64,000 bases of DNA, taken from positions 3,588-67,587 of the forward strand of contig CAZFAO010000005.1 in assembly GCA_964516875.1 (NCBI GenBank). Reading direction: 5' to 3'. Under the pieces are notes generated by a model, which saw only the letters and a program-made list of their open reading frames with translations, had not been told where the DNA came from and did not search any database. Positions 13,058-61,733 of this stretch are shown here, one piece after another (the stretch's first letter is position 1; every line of letters starts with the position of its first letter). Both the position numbers and the translations under genes were made by a program. The DNA comes from an uncultured Burkholderiales bacterium. GTDB lineage: Bacteria > Actinomycetota > Acidimicrobiia > IMCC26256 > JAGPDB01.

Positions 13058-13216
13058 TTCTCTTTCACCTTCGATTCTGGAAGTTATTCCACATAATGCA
13101 TCGCCATAAGGAAAAAATAACCGTGTACAAAATCTCACAGAAAACGAAGTACTTTTCGTAGTGTTGATGGAGTTCGTCACGAGACATGGACGAAGAAACT
13201 CTCAGGAAATTCAGCA

Positions 13217-13247
13217 GAGATCCTTCGGACTACGTCCTCTGGATGAC
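13217..13247 (-). repeat. Dispersed repeat, long unit (locus A)
   Basis: Minus strand reads GTCATCCAGAGGACGTAGTCCGAAGGATCTC. It belongs to the same family as the units at 24389-24481, 27463-27549 and 45232-45289. Confidence 0.7.
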
Positions 13248-13385
13248 AAGCGAGAAGCCTCCTTGGCGTTTGAACGCCCTCCGGAGGAGAATGTCTCACT
13301 CTTCGCGTGATGATTTATTATGCATTTGCAGCGAATGAGGAGACTACAGGCTCCGAGTGTTTTGGCATGGATGCCAAACGCGAAA

Positions 13386-23793: not shown

Positions 23794-24372
23794 ATGACAA
23801 CTGAATCTCCCTTCGTCTCGACGGCCCCTGTTCCCTCTCAGTATCTCGTATGGGCTGACTGCGAGATGACTGGCCTCGAAATCGCTACAGATACGCTTGT
23901 AGAAATCGCACTCGTTGTCACCGACTCTGATTTAAATGTTATCGATGAAGGAATCGATATCGTCATTCAAGAAAGCGCAGAGAAACTCGATTCGATGAAA
24001 GACATCGTTAAAAAGATGCATGAGAAATCTGGATTGACGAAAGAAATTCTTGCCAGCAATACATCTGTCAGCGAAGCCGAAGAACAATGTCTTGCCTACT
24101 TAAAAAAACTTGGAATCAAAGGCGGGTCTGCTCCACTCTGCGGTAATTCTATTGGGGTCGATCGACGCTTCCTCGATAAGTACATGCCGAAGTTGGATTT
24201 CTTTTTACACTATCGAAGTGTTGATGTTTCTTCTTTTAAAGAGCTCTGTCGTCGATGGTACCCTGACGTGTTTGACAAGCGCCCACAAAAACTTGGTGAG
24301 CATCGCGCACTCGGCGACATCATGGGATCAATCGAAGAGATGAAGTACTACCGCGACAACATGCTCAAGTAG
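23794..24372 (+). CDS. orn: Oligoribonuclease
   Basis: 192 aa. DEDDh exonuclease motifs WADCEMTGL, GNSIGVDRRFL and HRALGDI. Confidence 0.9.
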   Translation: MTTESPFVSTAPVPSQYLVWADCEMTGLEIATDTLVEIALVVTDSDLNVIDEGIDIVIQESAEKLDSMKDIVKKMHEKSGLTKEILASNTSVSEAEEQCLAYLKKLGIKGGSAPLCGNSIGVDRRFLDKYMPKLDFFLHYRSVDVSSFKELCRRWYPDVFDKRPQKLGEHRALGDIMGSIEEMKYYRDNMLK

Positions 24373-24388
24373 CTGAGTCGGCCCTCTT

Positions 24389-24481
24389 GAGATTCTTCGT
24401 CGCTGCGCTCCTCTGAATGACCGGTGTAGTTGTCATCCCGAGCGCGTTCCCTGTCATCCAGAGCGAAGCGAAGGATCTCCC
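24389..24481. repeat. Dispersed repeat array (locus B): inverted long unit, short unit, long unit
   Basis: 24389-24421 is the reverse complement of GTCATTCAGAGGAGCGCAGCGACGAAGAATCTC. 24432-24452 is GTCATCCCGAGCGCGTTCCCT. 24453-24481 is GTCATCCAGAGCGAAGCGAAGGATCTCCC. The array fills the convergent orn / 24484 intergenic space. Confidence 0.75.
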
Positions 24482-24483
24482 TC

Positions 24484-26424
24484 TTAAAACGAACGGCCTT
24501 GTTCTTGTTGCGTAGGTGGCTGACTAGCTGATGCTGGTGCATTCCTCGTTGGTTGAACTGGTGCAACATCAATCACGTCTGTCGAAGCAATCTCAGGTGA
24601 AGCATCACTTAACGCGCGTTCAATGAGATACGCAGTGTCGCTTTCCGGTTCAAGAACAACTCGCGTTTCAGTGAATCGAACACGTAGAAGCGTCTCGAGA
24701 ATTTCTTCTGCAGTCTCCTCGTGCTGATCCACAAGATCAAATGCAGCTTTCACAAAATATTTACGCAGCGATTGAAAAGTATTCGGTGGAACTAGTTTGT
24801 CGAGAGAGATAAACCATTCAATTTCATCTGGATTTTGTTCCGCAGATCGATGAGCAAGATTGGAGAGAAATCGAACTCCATCAAGTTCTGGAATGTCGTT
24901 CAGAAATCCTATCTTTGCACCAGATAAAGTCATCCCTTGTTGGACGAGAACAAAAGTTACTCCATCTGCAAATTGATGCGTTTCAAAATTTCTTGCCGCA
25001 ATATCTAGAGCAATCTGAGAAAGCTGTTGTTTGTTTCTTTCCACAATCGAAACGAGATCTTTTTTTGCCTGAGATCTCACACGTTTTCCTGCAAATGATT
25101 TATCATCACTATGCCGATTGAGACGCTCAAGCACATCAGCAATCTCACGAATAATCTCAGTATCGGCAATGCGCTGCTCATTAATTTTCTTCTCCGCAAG
25201 TGCTTCGCGAGAAGCAACAGCTGCTTCATGCGCAGTTACCGTTGCTCTATCATTAGCGATGATTGATTTTTGTTGAGCAATCTCGTCTCGAATCGCATCT
25301 GCTGCGCCAGTTAATTCGTCAAGTTCTGCTTGTGCCTCTTCAATAAGTTGAGAACGTTGCGCCAATGCAACATCTGCGTCATCAAGTTGGACTCTTGCAG
25401 CTAACACTTCTTTTTGTAATTCCGCAGACAACTTATCCAGTGGAATTGTGTCAAAATCAATGCGACCAAGTGCTTTTGATTTTCGAGCGAGAAACATGTC
25501 ATCAATAACAACAAAAATGCCGTGAACATCATCGGTTCTATTTACTGTTAAATCACTCATCTCATCCATCTCAAAATCCATTTGAGCGGCATTTGCTAAA
25601 AACGATGCCAGATAGTCCCGCGTTTGAGCATCAAATTGTGCATATTTTGGATATGCTCCTCTAGGCAATCGAAGGTCATGAAAGATTTGAGCCAGTTGCA
25701 GCTCTGAGATCTTTGCCATGCCAGGTTCCACTTGGAAGGAAAAATATCTATCACCAGTACGCGTATTCTGTCTTTTATGAACTGAACCACGATCCACATA
25801 ATCTGTAGAAAATGAAAGGAGATCTTCAGAAAATACGAGTTGATCAGGCGTAAAACGATAATGGGTGTGGAGAGGACTCCAATAAAAGTTGGCATCAACT
25901 TTATCGCAGATGTCTCTAAATTTGGGGTTAACCTCCATTGATTGTCCTACGGGTAGATAAAACCCATTAGGTTCCGCAATGAGAACATGTACTTTATAGG
26001 GATCTTCTTTAGCGCTAAAATGTAATTTGCGTCTCTGAGTTTCAATATAAGCATTATCTGAGTACGGCAACGTAACGGAAATAATGTCAACTACACCACG
26101 CGATTTCAATAATCGTAACTGTTCAATTTTTGCATCTCGTGTAGCTTGAGAAGTCACCTCAGCAGAATCAGCATCATGAAAACCTTGCGTATTTTGAAAT
26201 TCAAATCCCATTGCGGGAAAAAGTCTTTCTTCAAACGGTAAGTCTTTATTGGTCGCTGTAGTAGCAAAAAGTGGCTGATTTACTGGACCTCCATCAGTCC
26301 ATACAACTGATATTTCACCACGCTTAACGCGCCGTTCGAGCTCACGTTTAAAACCACGAAAGGGCTCGATGTCTGGCGCTTGGCCTTGGAGCAGGACAAC
26401 AACGCCTGAAAGTGGAGTACTCAT
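24484..26424 (-). CDS. Large hypothetical protein with central coiled coil
   Basis: Long ORF (662 aa from GTG 26472, or 646 aa from ATG 26424, which is preferred). It has a ~330-aa N-terminal globular region, a ~110-aa heptad-rich Ala/Glu/Gln segment, and a C-terminal domain with a Pro/Gln tail. No known motif was found. Confidence 0.6.
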   Translation of the reverse strand: MSTPLSGVVVLLQGQAPDIEPFRGFKRELERRVKRGEISVVWTDGGPVNQPLFATTATNKDLPFEERLFPAMGFEFQNTQGFHDADSAEVTSQATRDAKIEQLRLLKSRGVVDIISVTLPYSDNAYIETQRRKLHFSAKEDPYKVHVLIAEPNGFYLPVGQSMEVNPKFRDICDKVDANFYWSPLHTHYRFTPDQLVFSEDLLSFSTDYVDRGSVHKRQNTRTGDRYFSFQVEPGMAKISELQLAQIFHDLRLPRGAYPKYAQFDAQTRDYLASFLANAAQMDFEMDEMSDLTVNRTDDVHGIFVVIDDMFLARKSKALGRIDFDTIPLDKLSAELQKEVLAARVQLDDADVALAQRSQLIEEAQAELDELTGAADAIRDEIAQQKSIIANDRATVTAHEAAVASREALAEKKINEQRIADTEIIREIADVLERLNRHSDDKSFAGKRVRSQAKKDLVSIVERNKQQLSQIALDIAARNFETHQFADGVTFVLVQQGMTLSGAKIGFLNDIPELDGVRFLSNLAHRSAEQNPDEIEWFISLDKLVPPNTFQSLRKYFVKAAFDLVDQHEETAEEILETLLRVRFTETRVVLEPESDTAYLIERALSDASPEIASTDVIDVAPVQPTRNAPASASQPPTQQEQGRSF

Positions 26425-26529
26425 ATATCTTCTCTGAAAAAAGCCGGAGGGTCCATAAAGGACATAAGGCACATTGTACTAGGCGGAAATGATCTGCGCA
26501 AAAACGGTTAGTACCTGTTCAGCAGCACT

Positions 26530-27462
26530 TTATGAAGTAGCTGCGCTCAACCATAAACCGTCCAACAGATCAGTACAACTCACCACAATCGACGGTAATT
26601 CAAAGTGGCGCATGATGGCCACGACGATTGCGGCGCCTGCAACAATCACATCTGCACGTTCAGGTTCAAGACCAGGATTATGTTTGCGATCTTCCAAGGT
26701 TTCTGTAGCGAGGGTGCGGAACACATCTTCGGCTGCTTCGCGCGTAAGAACGAACTGGTGAATTGCGTCAGCATCGAATTGCACCAAGCCAAGTTCGACA
26801 GCTGCGATTGTTGTCACTGTCGCTGCAACACCAACCCACGTTCGATTGTTCACAATTTCTGGAATCTCTAGTTGCACTTCTTTTAAATACTCACGAACTT
26901 CACTAATCACATTGGTGAGTTCTTCGGGTGCGGGAGGATCAGAGCGAATGTGACGGTTCGTCATCACGACACTTCCCAGCGGAATTGATTTCACTGTGGC
27001 ACATGTTTCAAAGTTCTTTGTATCGGACAAAGCAAATTCCGTCGATGCTCCACCAATATCAAAAACAACACTCGGCGTTTCGAGAGTCAATCCACTCATC
27101 GCACCCGCAAACGCAGTTTCGCCTTCTTGTTCACCTGAAATTACTTGAGCGCTTACGCCAAAATCAGTGCTCACATGTGCAATAAAATCAACACCATTTT
27201 TTGCTCGTCGGGCAGCTGCTGTTGCAAAAAGTGAAATGTTATCTTTTGTTGCACCACTGTCGATTGCGAGAGAAATAAAATCTGAAACCGCGTTGCGTGT
27301 TGCATCCATTGATTCATCGGACAACACGCCGGTTGCATCGAGACCTTTTCCTAAGCGGGTGATGCGAACATCACGGACAATATCGATGGTGGGATTATGA
27401 GTATCGCGAACAAGAACGCGCGTGGTGTTGCTTCCGATGTCGATAACGGCGATGATGGTCAT
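26530..27462 (-). CDS. ppx: Exopolyphosphatase / guanosine pentaphosphate phosphohydrolase family (Ppx/GppA)
   Basis: 310 aa. ASKHA-fold motifs VIDIGSNTTRVLV and VFDIGGASTEF. The ATG overlaps the upstream stop (ATGA). Confidence 0.85.
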   Translation of the reverse strand: MTIIAVIDIGSNTTRVLVRDTHNPTIDIVRDVRITRLGKGLDATGVLSDESMDATRNAVSDFISLAIDSGATKDNISLFATAAARRAKNGVDFIAHVSTDFGVSAQVISGEQEGETAFAGAMSGLTLETPSVVFDIGGASTEFALSDTKNFETCATVKSIPLGSVVMTNRHIRSDPPAPEELTNVISEVREYLKEVQLEIPEIVNNRTWVGVAATVTTIAAVELGLVQFDADAIHQFVLTREAAEDVFRTLATETLEDRKHNPGLEPERADVIVAGAAIVVAIMRHFELPSIVVSCTDLLDGLWLSAATS

Positions 27463-28040
27463 GGGAGATCCTTCGCTTCGCTCTGGATGACAGGGGAAGT
27501 GCTCCCGGTGACGGGGAAAGTGCTCCCGGTGTCAGGGGAAATGTGCGACTTTAGTTCGTCAATTTTATTCAATGTCCATTGCCCCACGGCATCATCACCC
27601 GAACCAAGAAGGTTGGCAACGTGGGTGTGAAGACATTTGAGACCTCGTCGCGTTCCTCCCACACCACCCGTGGGGCGAGGACCGTCATACGTGGGTGAAA
27701 TAAGAAAATCGCGCTGTTGCTCATAGTGATCGTGAATTTTCGCAATTGTGTCAAAATCAATTTCTTCTTGTGCAAGTTTGACCCCTCCCATACTTTCAAC
27801 TCGCGAAACATCAGCAACAAGTTGCTTATCAATCAACCAATAGCGCGTGGGCATGGGTGTCCCATCATTAAAAAACGGGGCGTTTTCAATCACCGTTGGT
27901 TGTGCATGTGCATCGCGCGCTGCGATACAAAATTCTCCTTGGGGAACTTTGCCTAAAAGATCAATAACCAATTCCCGCTCGGCAGAAGTTGGTTCAACCC
28001 ACGTATCGGGTTTTATCCACTGCGGCGATTCGAAAGACAT
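27459..28040 (-). CDS. DUF501 protein, C-terminus extended through a repeat array
   Basis: 193 aa in the conserved position between ftsB/divIC and ppx. GGVGGTRRGLKCLH is typical of DUF501. The last ~29 residues (SHISPDTGSTFPVTGSTSPVIQSEAKDLP) are encoded by repeat units 27463-27549. Confidence 0.75.
   Translation of the reverse strand: MSFESPQWIKPDTWVEPTSAERELVIDLLGKVPQGEFCIAARDAHAQPTVIENAPFFNDGTPMPTRYWLIDKQLVADVSRVESMGGVKLAQEEIDFDTIAKIHDHYEQQRDFLISPTYDGPRPTGGVGGTRRGLKCLHTHVANLLGSGDDAVGQWTLNKIDELKSHISPDTGSTFPVTGSTSPVIQSEAKDLP
27463..27549 (-). repeat. Dispersed repeat array (locus C): partial unit, two 21-nt short units, then a long unit
   Basis: The minus strand reads as follows. GTCGCACATTTCCCCT (27549-27534); GACACCGGGAGCACTTTCCCC (27533-27513); GTCACCGGGAGCACTTCCCCT (27512-27492); GTCATCCAGAGCGAAGCGAAGGATCTCCC (27491-27463). 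The last unit is 29/29 identical to 24453-24481. Confidence 0.8.
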
Positions 28041-30142: not shown

Positions 30143-30165
30143 TTTCCAGGGCCTGGCCCTGGAAA
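30143..30165. repeat. Palindromic hairpin element at the PPIase/mazG junction
   Basis: TTTCCAGGGCC-T-GGCCCTGGAAA is a perfect palindrome with 11-nt arms. It lies 1 nt after the PPIase stop and 9 nt before the mazG ATG. It has the same architecture and flank (..AAATGGA) as the elements at 61635 and 61709. Confidence 0.7.
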
Positions 30166-42800: not shown

Positions 42801-43280
42801 GTTGGCACTGGTATTTGGAAGTGTACATTTGAACAACTCGACACCTCCGGTTGTCCAGAAAGTTCTGACGTGACAGGTGTCCGATTGATTTCGAAACCAA
42901 TTAACGTTGGACAATTCGACATCGTTCAAATTCAGCTCACAACATTTGGTAACGACGGACACGAAGTATATACAAATAGATTCCAAGCACGCGCGAGCGG
43001 TTTGGCTCTGCCTGTTATTTCTTCCGACGTCAACGCGGTCACACCGACAACGACGACCACGACAACCACAACAACAACGACAACTCCGACGACGTCAACT
43101 CCGACGACGACTGTACCTGTTGAAGTTAAAGGTGAGACCTTAACAAACATCATCAGACCACTACCGTTTACGGGTGCGGCAAGTGTCGTGTTCTTAGTTC
43201 TGGTAGGACTCGGATTAATTGTTGGTGGATTCTTTGGAACAAAGGTAGTGAAAAAACGACGAAACTCTAAGTTCTTTTAA
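39864..43280 (+). CDS. Large LPxTG-anchored cell-wall surface protein with DUF11-like repeat and poly-Thr stalk
   Basis: 1138 aa. AAGGGAG SD, signal peptide ...ALSKAYAAG, and a DUF11-type block YNVLPPGLDFVSS. The TPTTTTTTTTTTTTTPTTSTPTTT stalk is followed by LPFTG, a hydrophobic helix, and KKRRNSKFF. Confidence 0.8.
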   Translation: MPMQPVFDGTWVIYTREPTKRAIALTLLAIFAAASFLMPALSKAYAAGPPTVALDSVLTRVSDGNAPFAAVDPNANNGLLATLDSAAYTFDINVNTLDAQPHTISNVTIVATLNSTSPHVAWMKNSMPTACTTVTLSSDSKTITCVLGGTVRTGTALKIDGAWFARSNVPNNTDVTTQFTVSGTMVADSSTTTNPAPHTSNADTIKVVSTGSNYEVRKSLSDPLNPYTIARDSSGNPIGVDVKWGVQVEVKSPTPNQTKGVNTSNLSTLTLEDLMSSGPADHLPINKNATLVNCSPVNAITDGIADSSSNVVGTYSAVQNSGTWTCNQSAAGEPVAIQATGIQWAPEWFPSGKYSHRDGYWSFNTSNNANEIYNNPTGKNNQAVVATQNLTIRYPWADVLAFDNTPGDRSKVSAGYISWCNNIGNIAVPGGPVDVDDPTNNEACVEIYKNPGVGNTSKRFVKYGGDWTSFPEHDLGLTEGALGTGDSDNYVVPNQKFAIAISAETSKLSPVGLADYVSCDSIDQTKYNLVEHNAAPVMSGATGSAHQYYSWQKSGTYDSSFPEVTDADIVVEFASTGTTFATSTQQRTVNCDSTSLVWKSDPTQLSGGIDSANLIRVRVLKQIPPRMRIDAYVSVQAHEGLAHNTRMFNFMQYKSSNFRNGAWNQASNRCLPENDPWNTSSGLFSCVVLADRAFVILPPPLQQLSDTPERPLQDKTATLTTGQEWTYTMKSGLTFNADVAIKGVHVYNVLPPGLDFVSSTTTPTDIISDCDAAVNVDCLTNDAARTNIGYRTIIWDRGDSDFDYTGTPPAPQLQSTIFGSWQVTTRVAKFIANGSKLQTRSWTRADSGIENIDHPIVFRDNDAAWHNDLLSGPIDDDWVQIATAQAFGIEKYITEDHIPLNGVVEYNLAFGNLTGNAKTMDAIDILPFNSDSRSPASVIDGGFSLTGIIDPHALISKVYVTSADPTTLNSDPNNPSNPVVGTGIWKCTFEQLDTSGCPESSDVTGVRLISKPINVGQFDIVQIQLTTFGNDGHEVYTNRFQARASGLALPVISSDVNAVTPTTTTTTTTTTTTTPTTSTPTTTVPVEVKGETLTNIIRPLPFTGAASVVFLVLVGLGLIVGGFFGTKVVKKRRNSKFF

Positions 43281-45223: not shown

Positions 45224-45231
45224 TCACACCC

Positions 45232-45289
45232 GTCATTCAGAGGATAAGTCCGCCCGTCATTCAGAGGAACGAAGTGACGAAGAATCTCC
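45232..45289 (+). repeat. Dispersed repeat array (locus D): short unit plus long unit
   Basis: GTCATTCAGAGGATAAGTCCGCCC (45232-45255) followed by GTCATTCAGAGGAACGAAGTGACGAAGAATCTCC (45256-45289). It lies in the intergenic space between the desaturase and the RibD_C-like gene. Confidence 0.75.
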
Positions 45290-45315
45290 GATGGCAATAG
45301 AAGTAAAGTGGTGGC

Positions 45316-46041
45316 GTGGAACAACTCTTCCCCACCCATTGTGTCCTTGAAACAACAGAAGCGTATGCGCTCAGTGACCCCGATGCACCACATCTAAGAA
45401 TCAATATGGTGTCCAGCATCGACGGAACAGTTGTTGTCGATGGAAAATCTAAACCATTAAGTTCCAATGAAGATCGAAAAGTTTTTCACGCTCTCCGTTC
45501 AATGGCTGACGTGATACTTGTTGGAGCGGGAACTGCGCGCAAAGAAAACTATGGGCCTGTCGTTTTCAGTGACGAGATTCAGCAACTCCGGGTATCGAAC
45601 GGGCTTTCACGAAACGCACCCGTCGCGGTTGTTTCTCACTCTGGACACTTCGATTGGGAAAGTCCTTTTTTTCAAGAAGCTCATTCAAAGCCCATCATCA
45701 TTACTGATGCGCATGGTGCACACAACGCGGTGCACGGTTCACACTATGCAGACATTATTTCGTATGGTGAAGATCATGTCGATCTGCAATCGGCAATCAA
45801 TGAAATCTATTCGCGTGGTTTGAAACACATTCTGTGCGAGGGTGGACCATCACTCAACACTGATCTACTAAACGCTGGTGTTGTTGACGAACTGTGTCTC
45901 ACTCTTTCACCCGTCCTTACGAACAGTTCAACGAAAACAATTTTTGATGGACTCAACTGCGATGAACCTGCACGAATGGAGTTTTCTCACATCTTGCGTG
46001 AAGGTGATGACATTTTTTTGCGATTACAGAATAAACGGTAG
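45316..46041 (+). CDS. RibD C-terminal domain / dihydrofolate-reductase-like pyrimidine reductase family protein
   Basis: 241 aa. INMVSSIDGTVVVDGKS...LRSMADVILVGAGTAR and ILCEGGPSLN patterns. GTG start. Confidence 0.7.
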   Translation: MEQLFPTHCVLETTEAYALSDPDAPHLRINMVSSIDGTVVVDGKSKPLSSNEDRKVFHALRSMADVILVGAGTARKENYGPVVFSDEIQQLRVSNGLSRNAPVAVVSHSGHFDWESPFFQEAHSKPIIITDAHGAHNAVHGSHYADIISYGEDHVDLQSAINEIYSRGLKHILCEGGPSLNTDLLNAGVVDELCLTLSPVLTNSSTKTIFDGLNCDEPARMEFSHILREGDDIFLRLQNKR

Positions 46042-46874: not shown

Positions 46875-48908
46875 CTAAAGAGATCGCACCAATGGAGGCC
46901 TTGTATTTTCCATCGACACTTGTTGTTCTTGCACTTGCGGAGCGCATGGCTTATTAGCACCACACATGGCCCTGAACGGACAATCCCTATTACAAATGTT
47001 GACTATCTCAGTTGGCTCTTTGTCGTAGTCAGGACGCTCCCCATCTGTTGGCTCGTTGGGAAGATCATGATCGTCGCGTATGTCAAACAAGTCTGATTTT
47101 GTTTCCACCACTTCACGCGCATCGACTGCTCTGTCTTGAATAGTCTGAGGCTCGTGATGCATTTTTTGCGTGCCGGGTTGTTGATTGAATAGAGCAGCGT
47201 CTGTTTGTTTCTGCGGAAATGATTCCGTTTTAAAATTAGGAGGACCTTTCATGAATGCATCGGGTGCAAATTCCGTTGTTTGGTCCTGCCTTGTTGGAGC
47301 TGCCGGGGTAACGCCGGGAGCTTCACGTGTTCCAATTGCGACGAATACTTCATTATCTGCACGTGCAGGACTAGCAACAACAGATGGGGCAAGAGTTGGT
47401 GATGCTGGTGTTGCAGCAGGTGTGGCAGCTACTGCTGCCGCTGTTACCGTTGCTACTGTTGCAGCTGTTGCTGCGGCAAGAGAAGTTGCACTTGATGAAA
47501 CAGTGCGCGATGCATCTTGTTGAAGAACTTGCTGTTGCTGTGCATTGTGACGTGCCTGTTGAGCAAGTTGCGCTTGTTGCGCGACAACCTGTTGTTGCAG
47601 TTGCCTTTGGCGTTCTTGGTGTTGAGCGTGAATTTGCTGTTCTTGTTGCGCAATCTGTGCTCGACGTGCTTGCTCGCGAGCTTGGAGCTGTTGTGCTTGC
47701 TGTGCTTGTTGATCGTTCAGCGAGGAAGGTTGTTGAACCGGTGATGTCGCATTGTGTATAGGCTGATCCACATCCGTCACATCGATAAAACCGCGCTTTT
47801 TATCGGAGCCATCCGAAAGACCGCCAACTTCGACAAACCCTGCTTCGTCAAACAAACGCTCATCGGCAGTCACAACAAGTTCGCGCTCGTTGACTTCAAT
47901 AATCATGTCACGGACTTGGTCAACATCGAGTTCCGCAATCGAGGCGATAAGTTCCTTTTTTTCAAGATGAGACATGTCGGCAAAACGTTCGAGATCGATA
48001 TCGTTCACCATATCGATAATCACTTGCGCTTTTTCTTGCGTGATTTCACCCGCTTCAACAAGAAGAGCCATTCGCTCTTCGACGGATTTAATCAGAACAG
48101 CCATTTCATCGAAAGATACGAACCCTGCTTCATCGAACAATCTCTCATCGGCAGTCACAACAAGTTCACGTTCATTGATCTCAATAATAAGGTCACGCAC
48201 TTGGTCAACATCGAGGGTCGCTATTTGTGTAATTAATTCTTTCTGCTCTTGAAGAGTCATATCTGTAAATCGTCGAACATCAAGCGCGTTTGCCATTTCA
48301 ATAATAAGATCGGCTTTTTCTTGCGTGATTTCTCCCGCATCGACAAGAAGAGTCAATCGCTCTTCTACGGACTTAATCAGTGCTGCAATTTCATCGAACG
48401 ATACAAAGCCTTCTTCTCCAAGATTTCTCTTTGCAGCAGCATTGACAATGGATTCAATATCAAGTTCGGAAAAATACTGTTCGTACTCGGCGATGATTGC
48501 TTGAACTTGTTCTGTATCGAGTTCCTCTAGGTCGGCAGACATTCCAGGAAGCGGCGCTAAAACATTTTTGTCATCTTCGGCAGAAAAGTCGACGACTTCA
48601 CCTGTGTAGCGCGCATGCTGTTGTCGCATTTGAGCAAGTTTGTTAATGATCGCAAGAAGTTCTTTGTTTTTCTTTTGCTTAATTGCTTCACGACATTCTT
48701 CAATCATTAACTCGAGAGCAATAAGGCCATAAACATTTTTATACCAACGCAAGTATGACTCAAGGTTGATGAAAGAACGAACACCATTTTCTTGCAACTC
48801 GGAAAGTTCTTTAACGATCTCGTCGATTTTGTCATCGGCGACTTCTCGCGGTTGCGCAGCGTGATCCATCGTGAGATAGTTACGGCGTATGTTGCTTCCG
48901 TTGAACAT
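46875..48908 (-). CDS. Hypothetical protein with 2 x 95-aa tandem repeat, Gln-rich and Ala/Thr-rich regions, and C-terminal Cys cluster
   Basis: 677 aa with GAAAGGG upstream of the ATG. Repeats span aa 167-261 and 262-356. QAQQAQQLQAREQARRAQIAQQEQQ low-complexity region. C-terminal CNRDCPFRAMCGANKPC. Confidence 0.6.
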   Translation of the reverse strand: MFNGSNIRRNYLTMDHAAQPREVADDKIDEIVKELSELQENGVRSFINLESYLRWYKNVYGLIALELMIEECREAIKQKKNKELLAIINKLAQMRQQHARYTGEVVDFSAEDDKNVLAPLPGMSADLEELDTEQVQAIIAEYEQYFSELDIESIVNAAAKRNLGEEGFVSFDEIAALIKSVEERLTLLVDAGEITQEKADLIIEMANALDVRRFTDMTLQEQKELITQIATLDVDQVRDLIIEINERELVVTADERLFDEAGFVSFDEMAVLIKSVEERMALLVEAGEITQEKAQVIIDMVNDIDLERFADMSHLEKKELIASIAELDVDQVRDMIIEVNERELVVTADERLFDEAGFVEVGGLSDGSDKKRGFIDVTDVDQPIHNATSPVQQPSSLNDQQAQQAQQLQAREQARRAQIAQQEQQIHAQHQERQRQLQQQVVAQQAQLAQQARHNAQQQQVLQQDASRTVSSSATSLAAATAATVATVTAAAVAATPAATPASPTLAPSVVASPARADNEVFVAIGTREAPGVTPAAPTRQDQTTEFAPDAFMKGPPNFKTESFPQKQTDAALFNQQPGTQKMHHEPQTIQDRAVDAREVVETKSDLFDIRDDHDLPNEPTDGERPDYDKEPTEIVNICNRDCPFRAMCGANKPCAPQVQEQQVSMENTRPPLVRSL
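47841..48410 (-). repeat. Intragenic tandem duplication (2 x 285 nt)
   Basis: Units 48410-48126 and 48125-47841 encode GFVSFDE(I/M)A.LIKSVEER..LLV.AGEITQEKA..II.M.N..D..RF.DM....E.KELI..IA.LDVDQVRD.IIE.NERELVVTADERLFDEA. They are roughly three-quarters identical at the nucleotide level by eye. Confidence 0.8.
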
Positions 48909-60835: not shown

Positions 60836-61684
60836 TCATTGGCGAAAAAGAGTCTGGGCATTCGCAAACAATGCCGACACAATATCTTCTCGCGTATCTC
60901 CACATTCTTGCGTGCGTATCTCGACGATCTGATCGACAACATAGGCAACGTAACTCGGTTCATTCAACTTCCCTCGGTGAGGAACAGGAGCTAACCATGG
61001 AGCATCCGTTTCGCACAACAAACGCTCCAGTGGTGTGACAACAATCGCGTCGCGAATTTCTTGTGCATTTTTGAATGTAGCAATTCCCGATATAGAAATA
61101 TATGCACCGTTGTCGACGCAACGAATAGCTTCTTTCGGACCGCCCGTAAAACAATGGAGCACAACTTTGCTGGGCCATTTTTCCTTCTCAAGTAAACCAA
61201 AAGTGTCGTCCCACGCGTCACGAGTGTGGATGACCATTGTGCGGTCAAATTCTTTTGCAAGACCAATCTGCCACACAAACGATTCCGTCTGATCGTTCTG
61301 AGTGGAATGGTTATAAAAAAAGTCGTATCCCGTTTCACCTATGCCAGCAATAAGATCAATGTTGTCTGATAAAAGTTTTTCTAGTTGAGATTTCTGTTCG
61401 CCCAGGTGCTGCGCTTCGTGTGGATGTAAACCCATCGTCGCTTTCACATCAAGATCATCAAGCCCAAGTGCCTGTCGTTCGTCTTGGACCATGCGAACAA
61501 CATCGATGGAGCGTTGAGTCGTCTCCACATCGCAACCAATGACGTTGATTGCACGAACGCCTGCTTCATACGCACGCGGCAGTTGATCACGAGCATCATT
61601 GAGAGAATCAAAATGGCAGTGTGTGTCGAACAGCTTGCAGGGTCCGACCCTGCAAAAATCATCTGACCCAATACCAGTCACCAC
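60836..61684 (-). CDS. tatD: TatD-family metal-dependent hydrolase/DNase
   Basis: FDTHCHFD plus conserved His/Asp/Glu positions (HPHEA, GETGYDF, IHTRDA, LHCF, ETDAPWL). GTG start with GAAGGG SD. The N-terminal ~17 aa include a translated palindromic element. Confidence 0.88.
   Translation of the reverse strand: MVTGIGSDDFCRVGPCKLFDTHCHFDSLNDARDQLPRAYEAGVRAINVIGCDVETTQRSIDVVRMVQDERQALGLDDLDVKATMGLHPHEAQHLGEQKSQLEKLLSDNIDLIAGIGETGYDFFYNHSTQNDQTESFVWQIGLAKEFDRTMVIHTRDAWDDTFGLLEKEKWPSKVVLHCFTGGPKEAIRCVDNGAYISISGIATFKNAQEIRDAIVVTPLERLLCETDAPWLAPVPHRGKLNEPSYVAYVVDQIVEIRTQECGDTREDIVSALFANAQTLFRQ
61635..61659. repeat. 25-nt palindromic hairpin element, copy 1 (inside tatD codons 9-17)
   Basis: TTGCAGGGTCCGACCCTGCAAAAAT, with stem GCAGGGTC/GACCCTGC. 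Confidence 0.8.
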
Positions 61685-61708
61685 TTATACCCTTCTATAT
61701 CTTCTCCA

Positions 61709-61733
61709 TTTTTGCAGGGTCGGACCCTGCAAA
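61709..61733. repeat. 25-nt palindromic hairpin element, copy 2 (between metG stop and tatD SD)
   Basis: Its reverse complement is 25/25 identical to copy 1, so the two copies are inverted relative to each other, 49 nt apart. Confidence 0.8.

Follow-up and report, generated by a model that had tools for sequence, protein, structure and literature searches.

Two groups of tagged hairpin repeats come closest to the element described here. CGTC-tagged REPs were defined by Di Nocera et al. (2013, PMC3733652), who noted in-frame intragenic copies and found no dedicated transposase. The in-frame intragenic copies encode 20 to 30 residues, and about 10% of them lie at the ends of open reading frames (ORFs) (PMC3733652). 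The NTS, or Ssn-related motifs (SRMs), are hairpins flanking SsnA-family GIY-YIG nucleases (Chenal et al. 2025, PMC11893778). Enzymes of the SsnA family bind the single-stranded DNA form of the hairpin and cleave a few nucleotides (nt) upstream of it; the GTC that precedes the palindrome and the C that follows it are both critical (PMC11893778). The present analysis concerns a repeat at the junction of the DUF501 gene and ppx in the window, which is the whole 64,000-nt stretch of contig CAZFAO010000005.1, from an uncultured bacterium placed in the Acidimicrobiia. In the reading considered probable here, one arm of an interspersed hairpin repeat of the CGTC-REP/Ssn type, consisting of two 21-nt heads and a full unit, was inserted in frame at this junction.

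An in-frame insertion at the DUF501-ppx junction

The DUF501 ORF (27459..28040, minus strand) encodes 193 residues and ends in ...IDELKSHISPDTGSTFPVTGSTSPVIQSEAKDLP*. The Pfam DUF501 domain (PF04417) covers residues 40-157 with 76.4 bits against a gathering cut-off of 23.8. The downstream ppx (Ppx/GppA) ORF (26530..27462, minus strand) matches the Ppx-GppA profile, and its N terminus, MTIIAVIDIGSNTTR, agrees with that of relatives. The DUF501 stop and the ppx start form a -4 overlap, ATGA (27459..27462, minus strand), with TGA at 27459-27461 and ATG at 27460-27462. A Shine-Dalgarno (SD)-like motif, GAAGGA (27469..27474, minus strand), lies in the 3' arm of the long repeat unit and is separated from the ppx ATG by the 6-nt spacer TCTCCC (27463-27468). 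The gene order mazG-eno-divIC-DUF501-ppx-orn agrees with that of relatives.

The inserted block (27463..27537, minus strand) is 75 nt long (21 + 21 + 33), encodes PDTGSTFPVTGSTSPVIQSEAKDLP and is absent from the corresponding locus of the closest relative, L001. Tandem Repeats Finder reported a period of 21 nt at 27488-27540, with 2.5 copies, 84% matches and a score of 85. Together with pairwise unit comparison, this delimited head unit 1, GACACCGGGAGCACTTTCCCC (27513..27533, minus strand), and head unit 2, GTCACCGGGAGCACTTCCCCT (27492..27512, minus strand). The long hairpin unit, GTCATCCAGAGCGAAGCGAAGGATCTCCC (27463..27491, minus strand), was delimited from an exact second copy elsewhere and from the family alignment. 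It consists of a GTC tag, an ATCC/GGAT stem, a GCGAAGC core and a C right after the stem, and a CCCT lead-in brings its 29 nt to 33 nt within the block. The 29-nt unit recurs exactly at 24453-24481 (plus strand), and no match was obtained in 100 shuffles. With its flanks it is identical to 24449-24481 at 33 of 33 positions; the remaining copies in the window are divergent.

A protein search with the window DUF501 returned its own protein and, as the next best match, P0002 of locus L001 at 69% identity, which is sister to the window protein at 73% bootstrap. P0002 ends in ..ISELKAHVR*, aligned to ..IDELKSHIS of the window protein. Its DNA (..aaggcgcacgtccgATGA) keeps the stop/start overlap and is free of the repeat. 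The filled site of the window thus reads ..cgcacatttcc + 75 nt + cATGA and the empty site of L001 ..cgcacgtccgATGA, and there is no other indel between the two proteins (193 versus 168 residues). In an alignment of 32 relatives, the close homologues all ended 9 to 14 residues past a conserved Trp, and neither P0002 nor most of the 31 close relatives had the tail. As judged from the aligned loci, these results show a 75-nt (25-codon) in-frame insertion at the ancestral -4 DUF501-ppx junction. The natural end of the protein lies at about residue 168 (..ELKSHIS), and the repeat encodes residues 169-193.

A sequence-only reading of the window had stated that the minus-strand DUF501 frame runs through the entire array, with GAAGGA 6 nt 5' of the ppx ATG and the DUF501 TGA overlapping that ATG. 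Both statements agree with the coordinates, as the ORF spans the 21-nt tandem array and the 29- to 33-nt hairpin unit. The same reading proposed that the repeat had entered a conserved coupled junction in frame and had supplied a protein tail and an SD-like AAGGA, which is supported by the empty site of L001 and by an ATGA overlap in six of eight junctions. Its estimate of about 29 repeat-encoded residues was too high, the number being 25, since SHIS belongs to the natural tail and aligns with AHVR of the closest relative. The repeat is also not the source of the stop-codon context, as that reading had supposed, because the ATGA overlap is already present in the repeat-free L001. The orthologue alignment and the comparison of junctions in relatives that it had proposed were both run. 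The first placed the natural end of the protein at about residue 168, and the second set the repeat-free L001 against unit-bearing L002, L008, L011, L014 and L031.

The insertion looks recent, because the long unit is identical at 33 of 33 positions to a copy 3 kb away; the sister lineage without the block also argues for this. The simplest reading of the block is that a 54-nt head-plus-hairpin composite, nearest to the copy at 24430-24481, was copied in behind the last sense codon of DUF501 and ahead of the ATGA, and that the 21-nt head was then duplicated in place. The two junction heads match each other at 18 of 21 positions, whereas head 2, the one next to the long unit, matches the head of the 24430-24481 copy at 15 of 21 and head unit 1 matches the unit at 24432-24452 at 14 of 21, which suggests duplication in place. 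The 54-nt copy and the 21-nt duplication are each a multiple of three. Because the length of the block is a multiple of three and its frame is free of stops, DUF501 reads on to its old TGA and gains 25 residues. Neither of the other sense frames is open: one meets a TGA where the block begins, and the other ends at a TAA of the natural tail, shortly before the block. In an AlphaFold model built with an alignment, the domain had a pLDDT above 90, the final helix covered residues 151-166, and residues 167-193 formed coil at a pLDDT of 58-67. The 25-residue tail is therefore predicted to be disordered and, with the Pfam match ending at residue 157, does not appear to be part of the DUF501 fold.

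No sequence of the same species was found in the collections searched. The protein cluster had one member, and the exact window protein occurred on no other contig. A scan of genome contigs returned only relatives with at most 51% identity, the matches being dominated by the VIQSEAKD pattern, and a scan of metagenomes with the truncated DUF501 protein gave at most 49% identity.

The junction in related loci

The ATGA overlap was found in six of the eight distinct junctions read, the window counted. The -4 overlap is shared by the window, L001, L002, L008, L011, L014 and L031, and L015 and L016 differ. This distribution indicates that the overlap is ancestral. Members of the family also occur at this junction in a different clade of DUF501 (82% bootstrap), 2 to 3 nt before the ATGA and in the same orientation. 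L002 carries a canonical unit in another reading frame (..SLCHPEERSDEGSK), L008 has the unit-derived tail ..IQESEATKDLL, and the units of L014 and L011 are decayed. The unit of L031, the sister of L002, is strongly decayed. L015 and L016 of the same clade have no unit at the junction, and in L016 an array lies just after ppx. The fresh L002 unit beside the decayed L031 unit suggests re-insertion or gene conversion. By these comparisons, units appear to have reached the junction in two or more independent events, probably three.

AAGGA was located 5 to 7 nt before the ATG in all six repeat-bearing junctions (window, L002, L008, L011, L014 and L031). Of the 11 tail codons compared between L008 and L011, 4 were identical, 6 differed synonymously and 1 differed nonsynonymously; the gene bodies had 47 synonymous and 15 nonsynonymous differences. 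Because the change in the tail is mostly synonymous, the comparison indicates that the repeat-derived tail is translated, constrained and retained in this clade. The pattern IQxSEAxKDL[LI] was conserved with synonymous-biased change in P0016, P0022 and P0028. The sequence-only reading had held that a tail conserved in orthologues independently of the repeat would speak against it. Amino-acid conservation was indeed found, but in one other clade and in a tail that derives from the repeat.

Arrays or fragments of the repeat are also located in the convergent spacer between ppx and orn, at 2645-2773 in L016 and 4501-4523 in L002. Both ends of ppx therefore gather repeat units in this lineage. In L001, L002, L008, L011 and L016, orn directly follows ppx, and in L014 a different ORF of 219 amino acids (aa) lies between them.

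The repeat family and known repeat systems

Aligned units gave the consensus (CCC)(C/T)GTCATYCWGAG, a variable core that is often GCGAAGC, and then CGAAGRATCTC. In the unit alignment the stems covary as ATCC/GGAT or ATTC/GAAT. The closest paralog of the junction copy, with a 21-nt head and a long unit, is located at 24430..24481 (plus strand), inverted relative to the junction. A long-loop unit at 24387..24424 (minus strand) forms an inverted dimer with it between the convergent orn and a 662-aa ORF. The other copies are a 24-nt head with a long-loop unit at 45228..45292 (plus strand) and a solo long-loop unit at 13214..13252 (minus strand), 3' of a tRNA gene. The copies at 13214-13252, 24387-24481 and 45228-45292 are all intergenic, which agrees, as far as this window goes, with the description of the repeat as otherwise intergenic. 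Together, the junction copy and the 24430-24481 copy make up an inverted pair, I1, with 88% complementarity over 50 nt and a distance of 2981 nt; the pair brackets ppx and the 662-aa ORF.

The 662-aa ORF (24484-26472, minus strand) contains a long coiled-coil stretch, lies between ppx and the convergent orn and is bracketed by the inverted copies. It had no Pfam, NCBIfam or convincing PADLOC match, the sole hit being a weak coiled-coil match to LmuB. The inverted dimer at 24385-24485 (101 nt), flanked by the stop codons of orn and of the 662-aa ORF, consists of the long-loop unit, a 10-nt spacer and the head with a short-loop unit. With a folding energy of -35.1 kcal/mol (z = -2.7), it is a candidate bidirectional terminator or REPIN-like dimer. 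At 45228-45350 (plus strand), the 3' end of a unit (GAATCTCCG) directly abuts the ATG of a 19-codon ORF. It overlaps the following gene at the likely GTG start of the latter (45316); the N terminus of this gene was judged by eye to be RibD_C-like. The spacing from unit to ATG equals that at the ppx junction, which may be a coincidence.

The family spans several phyla. Beyond this lineage, matches of about 90% were found in Gloeothece, Planktothrix and Phocaeicola plasmids. A degenerate 27-mer was exact in 35 viral-contig loci. This 27-mer, GTCATTCTGAGCGAAGCGAAGAATCTC, is nearly invariant across viral contigs L032-L066, whose GC content ranges from 34% to 69%, which is unusual for a REP-type repeat. 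The layout of several heads followed by one full unit also occurs in L016, L047, L064, L066 and Planktothrix. Genes often read into a unit. In L042 an ORF ends in VILSEAKDL*, followed by tgaATG of a 727-codon ORF, and in L064 the stop of an ORF is the TGA of the unit and the following ATG is 1 nt past the unit. In-frame internal copies are present in L049 and L059. On the Planktothrix agardhii plasmids NZ_LR882964.1 (L029) and NZ_LR882951.1 (L030), orthologous MmeI-like methyltransferase genes annotated as PglX carry the repeat in frame (..TVIPQAPTIIPQTPTVILSETKDLS..), with differing numbers of in-frame 21-nt heads and dimers. The period is 21 nt for the heads within these ORFs and 23 nt for the arrays in intergenic DNA of the same plasmid (L074). 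A literature search for repeat and peptide strings (GAGCGAAGCGAAG, ILSEAKDL, HSERSEES and others) gave no match.

The genes found to be flanked by units encode GIY-YIG proteins, not RAYT. In L061, units lie on both sides of a 114-aa GIY-YIG ORF, and in L067, L068 and the Planktothrix plasmid L074 the GIY-YIG gene is bracketed by units or unit arrays. Among 108 nuclease homologues with a recognizable C terminus, 52 have the C-terminal sequence ..RDSSLRSE*, the in-frame reading of the reverse unit, whose TGA serves as the stop, and about 45 others end in ..NRVSF*, the forward unit. The L061-type nuclease is 49% identical to a Neisseria locus with NTS repeats at its flanks. Hairpins with a CGTC, TGTC or CCTC tag also flank the GIY-YIG homologues of Neisseria, Novosphingobium, Sinorhizobium and Spirosoma. 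The GIY-YIG link was first taken as new, and this was rejected because it has already been published (PMC11893778). In L074 (2040-2900), the GIY-YIG gene lies between a restriction-modification gene and the DISARM gene drmA. Its flanks are symmetrical (heads, forward unit, spacer, reverse unit, reverse heads), and the head-only units are always on the outer (5') side of the hairpin, the side of the reported SsnA cut.

In common with SRM/NTS, the repeat has an oriented (C/T)GTC tag, an AT at the start of its stem and a C following the stem, positions that govern cleavage and binding in Neisseria. Every copy in the window and each of the 38 viral-contig copies has the tag directly 5' of the palindrome (HGTC in SRMs) and the C directly 3' of it, in the form TGTC/CGTC + ATCC..GGAT + C. 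Interspersed copies and inverted dimers are further shared features. The location of SRMs on both sides of a single-domain GIY-YIG (Ssn, cd10448) gene also applies to the family (L061, L067, L068, L074 and about 97 of 108 C termini). Units of the window type differ from SRM/NTS in their shorter stem (4-5 bp) and larger loop. They also differ in a 27-mer that is near-invariant over GC contents of 34-69% and in tandem head-only units outside the hairpin. In addition, the junction motif lies within an ORF, whereas the NTS of N. meningitidis are intragenic in only about 2% of cases.

The general description of CGTC-tagged REPs also fits the repeat, namely palindromic units of 20-40 nt that carry one of the tags CGTC, TGTC or CCTC, begin their stem with AT and leave a short 3' tail unpaired (definition in PMC3733652). 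As in CGTC-tagged REPs, including the Rickettsia palindromic elements RPE-4/6, dimers are frequent and copies adjoin gene ends. The families CGTC-1 to -4 have a stem of 8-9 bp and a loop of 4-5 nt, and the stem here has 4-5 bp plus a 2-bp GC..GC core with an interior of 13-19 nt. Because these sizes differ, the window repeat falls outside the four described families. Further differences are that no CGTC-tagged REPs have been reported from Actinobacteria and that no dedicated enzyme was found for them (PMC3733652).

In their action at gene junctions, MIRU and Neisseria REP2 provide two further points of comparison. To our knowledge, the sequence of MIRU is unrelated to that of the junction repeat, and the resemblance is one of behaviour only. 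In the passages of the sources cited, MIRU occur at actinobacterial operon junctions in tandem units (Supply et al. 1997 via PMC12548453, PMC3184786). According to the same passages, they keep an open frame and the -4 stop/start overlap with the downstream gene, so that their insertion has little effect on expression. As described there, MIRU are 40-100 bp long and usually have their own small ORF, whereas the junction block is fused to the upstream gene. The cited passage on REP2 describes a dispersed repeat that gives initiation signals to a downstream gene (PMC3184786). REP2 as described there brings a promoter and an ATG too, whereas the ATG at the ppx junction is ancestral. The comparison supports the view that the junction block is a REP/Ssn-motif hairpin fused to the 3' end of a gene at a coupled junction, with MIRU-like behaviour.

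Mechanism, alternative readings and other features

After an insertion of this kind, ppx would still be translated through termination-reinitiation at the ATGA, and the AAGGA of the unit's 3' arm would replace the SD position displaced by the block. The insertion was presumably tolerated, not adaptive, in this genome. Its orientation and position may be attributed to survivorship, because only an in-frame, SD-carrying copy would keep ppx expressed. For its spread, the repeat would need a cognate Ssn-type nuclease, encoded in another part of the genome.

Several observations weigh against this reading. The locus is known from a single metagenome assembly, and translation of the tail in this organism is predicted from sequence. 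No GIY-YIG gene was found in the 64-kb window or in the loci of the relatives, and a cognate nuclease in this organism is assumed. The published SRM pattern, HGTCWYN(0-2)YYVSBRHN(0-5)WNVSBRGN(0-2)RNCYNB, had 0 matches in the window, L061, L067, L068 and L074, and a Neisseria NTS control was matched. A single unit folds as RNA at -3.9 kcal/mol, no better than shuffles. SD-like motifs are not common in this genome, as such 4-mers precede only 13 of 56 crude ORF starts in the window against a background of 10%; in the other clade, the conserved Lys-Asp codons confound the conservation of AAGGA. Among 37 viral-contig copies, no orientation bias relative to downstream gene starts was detected (7 sense, 12 antisense). 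Because of this lack of bias, the supply of an SD is not general to the family, and a "portable SD" as a family property was rejected. Sequestration of the SD by the hairpin, as a basis of strict coupling, was likewise rejected because the fold is too weak.

The alternative that survives best, although it is unlikely, is that the units mark ppx for an Ssn-type system in a motif-gene-motif arrangement like NTS-gene-NTS of Neisseria. They would be kept for their effects on recombination or uptake, with the tail and the SD as side effects. The inverted pair I1 and the units at the 3' end of ppx in L002 and L016 are consistent with this, and an effect of NTS-gene-NTS on transformation has been published (PMC11893778). 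However, no ssn gene was seen in the window, the closest relative has no units around ppx, and the bracketed segment contains the non-syntenic 662-aa ORF. Moreover, the role of Ssn-type motifs is known from Neisseria alone (PMC11893778).

Improbable to a greater degree is a contingency locus, in which 21-nt slippage would alter the length of the tail, or the spacing or structure before ppx, and thereby tune ppx expression. One in-place duplication of the head appears to have happened, and the two Planktothrix strains differ in the number of in-frame units of the same family. However, two imperfect heads with 3 mismatches in 21 are a poor substrate for slippage, and a change in head number, upstream of the long unit, would leave the distance from SD to ATG unaltered. 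Nor did the collections searched contain a second sequence of the species.

A cis-regulatory RNA role of the array between DUF501 and ppx, as an attenuator, terminator or processing site, is very unlikely. REP-type hairpins have been reported as RNA elements near gene ends (PMC3733652), but the fold of the 121-nt region is not more stable than that of shuffles (z = -0.58), and the fold of the unit alone is weak, as noted above. No terminator-like or promoter-like site was found in the array. Rfam gave nothing relevant in a gathering-threshold scan of the whole window or in permissive scans of 24300-27650 and L028-L030.

The tail could be an ancestral, functional C terminus of DUF501 whose likeness to the repeat is secondary, and the conservation of IQxSEAxKDL[LI] in P0016, P0022 and P0028 would agree with this. 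This is scarcely credible and already contradicted, given that the sister protein and most close relatives lack the tail, that the window unit is identical to an intergenic copy, that L002 reads its canonical unit in a different frame and that the tail has a low pLDDT. An artefact of the metagenome contig (repeat collapse or mis-join) is extremely improbable, because, although the organism is known from a single contig in the collections, the synteny is that of relatives, the frame leads exactly to the ancestral ATGA and the exact repeat of 33 nt is too short to mislead an assembler.

The insertion of the hairpin repeat at the DUF501-ppx junction provides a filled- versus empty-site example, in which a selfish repeat would have entered a junction without spare bases and left both genes unbroken. 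The block is compatible with both genes in being a multiple of three, in its stop-free frame and in having AAGGA suitably spaced from the start codon that follows. For annotators, the comparison suggests that the DUF501 tails in this lineage are repeat-derived. Units appear to have entered this junction on more than one occasion, and the peptide derived from them now seems to be a conserved part of the protein in one clade. A widespread Ssn-associated hairpin variant, with its head-array layout, escapes the published search pattern.

A broader proposal is tentative, and we would rather doubt it than rely on it. Ssn-type hairpins in a "coding-compatible" form, with stop-free frames and 21-nt heads, may repeatedly colonize the DUF501-ppx junction, with no fewer than two and probably three events in some 31 relatives, and may then be domesticated, with IQxSEAxKDLL under purifying selection. 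The head-only units, on the side reportedly cut by SsnA, could be footprints of repeated cleavage and repair. The Ssn/motif system would also extend to Actinobacteria, by way of the near-invariant 27-mer that is shared across phyla and escapes the published pattern.

Three further repeats were observed in the window. Inside the ORF at 46875-48908 (minus strand), a 285-nt tandem duplication with 77% identity lies at 47833-48416. It corresponds to a repeated 95-residue module of a 677-aa protein with a long Gln/Ala-rich region. At 61635-61733, the palindrome TTGCAGGGTC(C/G)GACCCTGCAAA occurs twice, 77 nt apart, with AAAAT/ATTTT flanks, and a related palindrome is located at 30144-30165. The palindromes at 61635-61733 represent a separate small hairpin family and are possibly terminators. 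A degenerate tandem repeat of the CGA/ACGACA triplet type, 67 nt long, lies at 43045-43111.

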